From assembly GCF_056712565.1 (NCBI RefSeq), contig NZ_CM160072.1: DNA of 64,000 nucleotides. One strand, given 5' to 3'. Shown here one piece after another: positions 16,721 through 18,016 of the stretch. Numbering within the stretch: the stretch's first letter is position 1; the number at the start of each line of letters is the position of its first letter. The notes under the pieces were generated by a model. It ran no database searches. It was not told the origin of the DNA and was given only the letters and a program-made list of their open reading frames with translations. The translations under genes were made by a program, and so were the position numbers.

Positions 16721-17089
16721 GTGTCAGACACACTTTCCGGGACAACGCATCCCGATGACAATGACGACCATCCCTGGTGGGGACTACCCTGCACAGTGAC
16801 GCCCTGTTTCGGCGCCCGTCTGGTGCAGGAGGGTAACCGGTTGCATTACCTTGCCGACCGTGCCGGTATCAGAGGCCGGTTCAGAGATGCGGATGCGTAC
16901 CCTCTGGACCAGGCCTTTCCGCTGCTGATGAAACAACTGAAATTAATGCTCACCAGTGGTGAACTGAATCCCCGCCATCAGCATACCGTGACACTGTATG
17001 CGAAGGGGCTGACCTGTGAAGCCGACACCCTCGGCTCCTGTGGTTACGTTTATCTGGCTGTTTATCCGACACCTGAAACGAAAAAGTAA
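16721..17089 (+). CDS. cbeA: CbeA/YeeU-family type IV antitoxin (GTG start)
   Basis: VSDTLSGTTHPDDNDDHPWWGLPCTVTPCFGARLVQEGNRLHYLADRAGIRG...; GAGG RBS upstream of GTG. Confidence 0.8.
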   Translation: MSDTLSGTTHPDDNDDHPWWGLPCTVTPCFGARLVQEGNRLHYLADRAGIRGRFRDADAYPLDQAFPLLMKQLKLMLTSGELNPRHQHTVTLYAKGLTCEADTLGSCGYVYLAVYPTPETKK

Positions 17090-17178
17090 ACCACCAGAAT
17101 AACCTTCTGCTCCGGCCTGGTGTTTTCACCACGCCACTGTCCCATTTTTTATCTCTGCATATCAGGAAAATCTTCAGT

Positions 17179-17285
17179 ATGAAAACATTACCCGACACGC
17201 ATGTACGGGAGGTATCGTGCTGCCCGTCTCCAGTCACCATCTGGCAGACACTGCTCACCCGGTTACTGGACCAGCATTCCCTGAT
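17179..17285 (+). pseudogene. cbtA: cbtA/yeeV-family toxin gene, truncated after ~35 codons
   Basis: MKTLPDTHVREVSCCPSPVTIWQTLLTRLLDQH matches the toxin N-terminus, then the frame diverges into low-complexity sequence; right-hand junction of the island. Confidence 0.65.
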
Positions 17286-18016
17286 TTCCTCATCGATATC
17301 GAATAAGCACTCGTCGCAGAATTCTTTATCGAGTGAGAGCCTCTGTTCAAGGACGCTTCTTTTTTTTGTTGCAACGTGCACATCCCTTCATCTTTCCGCG
17401 CCTTTGTGACCTCGTGATTTGGGGTACATGGAAAATGGGCGTAGCAAGCCTCAGCTAGATAACTAACCGTAATAAAAGGGCTTTTCTGCGAGCAATGTAA
17501 GAGAAGGATAACTAGGCAGGTTGCAAGAAAGATAATCGTTTTGATAGATCAGTTTATCGATATTGATCGTTAGTGCCGATCGATAAGAAGTGCGGAAACG
17601 TTAGACTCACCTCTGTTGCTCCATCATGATGATGGGGCTGTTGGCCCTCGAATCTATCTGTCTATTAGCATCGGCATGACAAACACCATTTGTTTCCACA
17701 ACAAAAGACAATAGAAAAGTACATATGTACAAAAAGTGTGATTTATTCTGTCACTTCAGTACTTCCTTTCGCCTAAGTTTGCCCGTAATAATTCCCCGTG
17801 CAGTACTATTGTTGCGACATAACAACATGAATTACATGGTAATAATAGATGTTTTCCTCTGCTGATTCCTGTAAGGATCATGACTCCATACGACATCATT
17901 TTTAATTTTATACAGTTCAAAAAATCTACATGTGTCACAAATAATTTTACATTTGATAATGTATAGTTGTCACATGACAAGTTGATTATCATTCTGTGTA
18001 GACAAGGAGAACTGTT

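Follow-up and report, generated by a model that had tools for sequence, protein, structure and literature searches.

A CP4-type module in the leuX island of Escherichia coli ends distally in a remnant CbeA/CbtA type IV toxin-antitoxin pair. Its antitoxin gene is intact, but the toxin gene has become a pseudogene, so that the locus holds no functional type IV pair. The surrounding genes identify the window, by which we mean the whole 64-kb stretch analyzed, as an E. coli leuX-linked mosaic island, and many complete E. coli chromosomes match positions 16300-18000 (1,701 nt) at 100% identity. RefSeq annotation was read from the identical locus of FDAARGOS_497, where a window position equals the position in that locus minus 1701. 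There, tRNA-Leu (leuX), an integrase, IS debris, and fecIRABCDE lie 5' of the module. leuX itself lies some 29 kb before the window begins, and no tRNA genes were found within the window. The fec genes are followed by IS66, a YfjI-family gene, a GTPase gene, Ag43, a frameshifted DUF905 gene, and DUF932, and then by an antirestriction gene, a RadC-like JAB gene, DUF987, the YeeU-family antitoxin, and the partial CbtA. On the downstream side are mtnK, mtnA, an aldolase gene, and a sugar transporter gene, followed by yjhU, yjhFGHI, and the sgc genes.

The genes leading up to the pair are all on the plus strand: the DUF932 gene (14149-14967; an ORF annotated by RefSeq in the identical sequence), the antirestriction protein gene (15309-15782; Pfam Antirestrict PF03230, E 2.3e-37, and RefSeq annotation), the RadC-like JAB domain gene, which is yeeS-like (15798-16274; Pfam RadC PF04002, E 3.4e-44, and RefSeq annotation), and the yeeT-like DUF987 gene (16337-16558; Pfam DUF987 over its full length, 1-65 of 65, E 1.5e-40). 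The DUF905 gene between Ag43 and DUF932 (13836-14031) is frameshifted according to RefSeq, and its pseudogene state is likewise annotated in strain 81009, in Z0117EC0013, and in one further relative. An ORF of 37 aa (16558-16671, plus strand) occupies part of the 162-nt gap before cbeA, its ATG overlapping the DUF987 stop codon (ATGA). It is open in two relatives with intact toxins (one of them 81009) and in the 95%-identical Z0117EC0013, whose version differs at 10 of 37 amino acids, and it has neither a Pfam match nor a RefSeq annotation. An Rfam search of 15500-18300 for structured RNAs or riboswitches returned nothing at E <= 1.

The antitoxin gene, cbeA, is a yeeU-family type IV antitoxin gene of 122 codons with a GTG start (16721-17089, plus strand), preceded by a GAGGA ribosome-binding site (16710-16714) that ends 6 nt before the GTG. 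In Pfam, its product covers positions 1-100 of the 101-position CbeA_antitoxin profile (PF06154; E 3.8e-53), with a score of 178.7 bits against a curated cut-off of 27, that is, a full-length family match. It also matches the solved YeeU structures 2INW (E 4.7e-75) and 2H28 (E 6.8e-74), as well as 2JN7 and 2EA9 (YfjZ), both at E about 1e-41. Furthermore, this CbeA (WP_001295723.1) is 100% identical to copies that stand beside intact toxins in relatives, including 81009. The order radC-DUF987-cbeA-cbtA is present, with cbeA directly upstream of cbtA, although the latter is a stub of 33 codons. By every sequence test, the gene belongs to the CbeA/YeeU family, and the claim of the first-pass annotation that cbeA is intact with a good ribosome-binding site is borne out by the Pfam match, the position of the GAGGA, and the identical copies in functional contexts. 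A sigma-70 scan of the plus strand over 16200-17180 found no promoter-like site, so transcription of cbeA is assumed to start further upstream. CbeA is probably still made, because its start codon, ribosome-binding site, and upstream operon are all retained.

Downstream of a spacer of 89 nt, the cbtA remnant spans 33 codons (17179-17277, plus strand). Its native upstream region is kept, including an AGGA at 17164-17167 that is a possible ribosome-binding site. The ORF that begins with the remnant (17179-17409) encodes 76 aa. It agrees with intact CbtA at every one of residues 1-33 (33/33 by tblastn), beyond which the similarity ends. Intact CbtA relatives are 124-125 aa long and match the whole Pfam model, whereas the 76-aa ORF matches PF06755 (CbtA_toxin) over profile positions 1-34 of 112 only. 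It had been claimed that about 35 N-terminal codons of the toxin remain; the truncation stands, and the tblastn alignment puts the number at 33. An intact toxin in an alternative frame had been named beforehand as the observation that would speak against truncation. When three intact CbtA proteins were compared with all six frames of the 64-kb window by tblastn, nothing was found beyond residues 1-33 at 17179-17277, and tblastn with the yeeW-like protein and the DUF957 protein gave no match in the window. The NCBIfam models for CbeA and CbtA were uninformative, as they returned no match even from an intact toxin. RefSeq labels the same 99 nt [quoted passage not shown]. Public annotation thus already treats the stub as a pseudogene of a partial CbtA, and does so in hundreds of genomes.

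K-12 CbtA blocks both division and elongation. It does so by two separable contacts, one with FtsZ (abolished in the F65S mutant) and one with MreB (abolished in R15C), and the R15C/F65S double mutant is non-toxic (PMC5624674). Both target-binding residues (R15 for MreB, F65 for FtsZ) are missing from the stub: position 15 is Cys (codon at 17221-17223) and position 65 is deleted. The 76-aa chimera would therefore be a dead toxin, lacking the F65 region for FtsZ binding and carrying Cys at position 15, and we infer on these two grounds that the stub is inert. Intact copies of this CbtA allele, in two relatives of which one is 81009, also carry Cys15. Since R15C abolishes MreB binding in K-12 CbtA, intact members of this allele group may act on FtsZ only.

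The remainder of the 76-aa ORF (17279-17409, plus strand) is DNA from upstream of mtnK, read to the first stop (TGA at 17407-17409), with 99.5% identity to Nissle 1917 and Z0117EC0013. In both of these genomes the matching DNA lies upstream of mtnK with no cbtA adjacent to it. The encoded tail of 43 aa had been described as low-complexity sequence ending in a T8 run. It is indeed rich in Ser and Leu (14 S, 8 L), but the DNA contains no repeats, and there is no Pfam match past residue 34. The T8 run is likewise present, at 17360-17367, but the ORF does not end there, as the TGA comes 42 nt later. The "low-complexity" tail is unrelated DNA of another locus in a frame set by the join, and not degenerate toxin sequence.

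We located the join by a three-way alignment of the window, intact cbtA (from two relatives, one of them 81009), and the undeleted right flank (from two relatives, one of them 81009). The match to intact cbeA-cbtA loci stops at 17276-17278, and the match to undeleted strains, in the DNA that precedes their mtnK, begins at 17277. The junction thus falls at 17277-17278, with a 2-bp TT microhomology common to both parental sequences. Window positions through 17276 correspond to the Z0117EC0013 locus through 5014, and those from 17277 onward to that locus from 17001 onward, so that exactly 11,986 bp are missing relative to Z0117EC0013; the same figure was obtained against the ST131 strain 81009. 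The join connects codon 33/34 of cbtA to a point about 740 bp (738-740) upstream of mtnK. The left flank is 99.8% identical to 81009 or 94.9% identical to Z0117EC0013, and the right flank is 99.5% identical; the ancestral arrangement is deduced from relatives rather than from a direct ancestor, and their right flank is at 99.5% and not 100%. GC content falls from 54% over the 1 kb on the left side of the junction to 39% on its right. Base-by-base comparison found neither filler DNA nor an insertion-sequence end at the join, and no repeats flank it, the only repeat being an inverted one of 12 nt close to where mtnK starts. A search for the final 18 nt of leuX, with up to 3 mismatches allowed, found no match in the window or in the 81009 and Z0117EC0013 loci.

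These observations agree with the earlier proposal that the right boundary of the island is a deletion junction: in 81009 and in Z0117EC0013 a single uninterrupted stretch is collinear with both flanks, 11,986 bp are absent from between them, the microhomology is short, and the site bears no mobile-element or att signature. A 2-bp microhomology without an IS or att signature fits illegitimate recombination. A single 11,986-bp deletion fused the head of cbtA to the DNA upstream of mtnK.

The content of the deleted segment was taken from the RefSeq annotation of Z0117EC0013 and 81009. In the undeleted order, cbeA is followed by intact cbtA, a DUF5983 gene, a DUF957 gene, and three gene remnants; next come an adenine methyltransferase of the Alw26I/Eco31I/Esp3I family, a cytosine methyltransferase, and the matching endonuclease; and last are McrC, McrB, and a glycosyltransferase fragment, after which mtnK is reached. 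The lineages with the junction have therefore lost cbtA codons 34-125, the DUF5983 (yeeW-like) and DUF957 genes, the three gene remnants, the Eco31I-family type IIS restriction-modification system (two methyltransferases and the endonuclease), McrBC, and the glycosyltransferase fragment. The prediction that the deletion had removed the toxin body and any following gene was correct, and the loss is far larger than that, at about 12 kb including two defence systems. These two systems are adjacent to each other in the deleted segment (Z0117EC0013 locus 7561-15582) and were lost jointly with the toxin in the junction lineages.

To the right of the junction, the AT-rich region upstream of mtnK (17277-18016, 39% GC) is present in 1,082 of the 5,426 complete genomes searched. 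In Nissle 1917, ST131, and others it is preceded by the glycosyltransferase fragment and McrBC. Some undeleted genomes carry ISEc52 close to the junction site, either 26 bp to its right (ST131; 17303-17306) or about 130 bp to its right (AVS0456; about 17408), and in Nissle 1917 the element lies inside mcrB; the short AT-rich stretch right of the junction appears to be a repeated ISEc52 target. The T8 homopolymer at 17360-17367 is T7 in undeleted relatives. In those relatives, an unannotated minus-strand ORF of 55 aa with two CxxC motifs (MKRCARCNKKRSVLEQRLSLDKEFCDECLFDIDEEIRERRIITIRRLKDDNERKS) lies upstream of the glycosyltransferase fragment (window 17255-17400, minus strand; Z0117EC0013 locus about 16940-17110). 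It has no Pfam match, and in the window it is frameshifted by the T8 and its end has been removed by the deletion. A pattern scan found no intrinsic terminator at the T8 run on the plus strand, and the folding of 17300-17372 is no better than that of shuffled sequence (z 0.52).

The first gene beyond this region is mtnK (18017-19276, plus strand; ORF and RefSeq annotation). Consequently, cbeA and the stub, together with the rest of the island operon (radC-like, DUF987), now lie about 740 bp upstream of mtnK in the same orientation. No plus-strand terminator was predicted between the island operon and mtnK (17090-18016), so read-through is conceivable, and transcription from the island possibly continues into the mtnK-mtnA salvage operon. 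The cluster of mtnK, mtnA, aldolase, and GRP-family transporter genes (18017-22181) is accessory in E. coli. We take it to resemble the methylthioribose/5-deoxyribose salvage ("DHAP shunt") cluster of extraintestinal pathogenic E. coli.

The same junction is found in 460 of 5,426 complete E. coli genomes (8.5%), as counted with a probe of 100 nt centered on the join, for which a coverage of 80% is out of reach for either half alone. An assembly artefact is ruled out, because the probe is spanned in 460 complete genomes. Over 871 nt that include cbeA, at least 60 junction genomes show 100% identity; with a haplotype so nearly invariant, selection to retain cbeA cannot be demonstrated, and the gene may simply be undecayed. 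When cbeA was used as a query in representative junction genomes, each chromosome gave between 1 and 7 matching places. In at least one of the genomes with the junction, CFSAN061770, another CP4-type module adjoins capsule genes and encodes an identical CbeA and an intact CbtA of 124 aa (WP_000854765.1). Conversely, among the 60 junction genomes listed, four (190, D3, NDM1, and 3347558) have only the junction cbeA-like place by megablast. A match to the toxin body is present in 4,939 of the 5,426 genomes; the 487 without it exceed the 460 with the junction, so this count does not bound the number of toxin-less junction genomes. The antitoxin had been called orphaned in the earlier annotation, and at this locus it is; genome-wide the term is probably true only sometimes, and it does not apply to CFSAN061770 with its intact CbtA at a second island.

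The module closely resembles the CbeA/CbtA (YeeU/YeeV) module of CP4-44 in K-12. Both have the order radC-like, DUF987, cbeA, cbtA, the antitoxin-toxin spacer is 89 nt here versus 88 nt reported for CP4-44, our CbeA aligns over its full length to the YeeU structure, and the toxin head is 64% identical to residues 1-33 of K-12 CbtA. Unlike the CP4-44 pair, the toxin here is cut after codon 33, the yeeW-like gene is gone, and no working pair is left; moreover, the island is at leuX, and toxin position 15 is Cys rather than Arg. A second parallel is YagB of K-12 CP4-6, a CbeA homologue without a toxin that has been proposed to be an orphan antitoxin in a degraded island (PMC5371832). In both cases a CbeA-family antitoxin gene in a degraded island lacks a working CbtA-family neighbor, but here a 33-codon toxin scar remains and the exact deletion can be mapped, whereas no adjacent toxin remnant is reported for YagB in that paper. 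A third comparison is with the undeleted loci of ST131 strain 81009, Nissle 1917, and Z0117EC0013, whose flanks are collinear with those in the window and, in 81009, encode an identical CbeA. In contrast to the window, the undeleted genomes keep the 11,986 bp with intact cbtA, DUF5983, DUF957, the Eco31I-family restriction-modification system, and McrBC.

Taken as a whole, we assign a probability of about 0.9 to the following account: the locus is a CbeA/CbtA remnant produced by one illegitimate deletion of 11,986 bp, which left a dead toxin and an orphan cbeA that can plausibly still act in trans. The origin of the junction could be sought instead in an ISEc52 adjacent deletion or in site-specific excision of an island segment, given that ISEc52 has been active in exactly this segment (26 bp or about 130 bp from the site, and in mcrB of Nissle 1917). 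We regard such an origin as quite improbable, since there is no IS end or target duplication at 17277/17278, the flanks run seamlessly into native sequence, the left breakpoint is within an ORF, and neither direct or inverted repeats nor a leuX-derived att copy in the deleted segment was found. IS-mediated adjacent deletions normally retain the element, which also counts against ISEc52. A comparison of two arrangements is formally symmetric between insertion and deletion, and this symmetry, with nothing else, would allow the truncated state to be ancestral and the 12-kb segment to have been inserted in other strains. The breakpoint splits the conserved cbtA ORF, however, residues 1-33 are identical to those of the full-length CbtA of 124-125 aa, and an insertion would have needed to bring the exact missing 3' part of the gene in frame; insertion in other strains is thus effectively refuted, with a negligible residual probability. 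It is also very unlikely that the chimeric ORF of 76 aa encodes a novel small protein with a function, such as a residual toxin or a dominant-negative fragment. The start codon is kept, as is the native sequence upstream of cbtA with its possible ribosome-binding site (AGGA, 17164-17167), and the ORF is preserved in hundreds of genomes; yet only 34 of 112 family positions are left, the stub has lost the F65 region and carries Cys15, its tail comes from non-coding DNA of a different locus and matches no family, and low haplotype diversity accounts for the preservation.

According to PMC5624674, citing Masuda 2012, the binding partners of CbeA are FtsZ and MreB, which it bundles and stabilizes, and not the toxin; CbeA also protects against other FtsZ inhibitors. 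In addition, CbeA, YafW, and YfjZ each neutralize one another's toxins (PMC5371832). The orphan CbeA may therefore act in trans on CbtA-family toxins encoded elsewhere in the genome or by incoming islands; this is plausible because CbeA works on FtsZ and MreB rather than on the toxin, and because the family cross-neutralizes. Loss of the toxin would also remove any cost of retaining the antitoxin alone, and with no such cost the antitoxin-only state would be stable. The alternative that deserves most weight is that cbeA is a neutral, undecayed leftover without current function, a short gene surviving after a recent deletion, and we rate it as a real possibility at somewhat less than even odds. 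The near-invariant junction haplotype fits a young event, the neighboring DUF905 gene is already frameshifted, and 190, D3, NDM1, and 3347558, having no second cbeA/cbtA-like place by megablast, offer no obvious resident target. Against this, cbeA is undamaged and shows no difference from the copies found in functional pairs, antitoxins of its family act on the targets of the toxins and cross-protect, and most junction genomes have further CbtA-family loci (2-7 places), one of which is confirmed to be intact.

Biologically, the locus is ordinary and already annotated; what we add is the exact size of the deletion, its content, and its frequency. As a decayed toxin-antitoxin pair, it has little import beyond correct annotation. 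Nevertheless, the 11,986-bp scar is a handy lineage marker for the leuX region, being carried by 8.5% of complete E. coli genomes, and the loss of a toxin, a type IIS restriction-modification system, and McrBC in one event is an example of defence-island turnover. The natural antitoxin-only genotype, which occurs with or without paralogous toxins, is suited to tests of type IV trans action in wild strains. A further, unlikely proposition is that the orphan cbeA has been selected as an "anti-addiction" or immunity gene; as a second effect of the deletion, the island operon may read into mtnK-mtnA. If cbeA were so selected, the toxin-less leuX copy would shield cells from CbtA-family toxins encoded by further CP4-type islands, whether resident or incoming, those islands would be easier to lose, and protection against other division inhibitors might follow.
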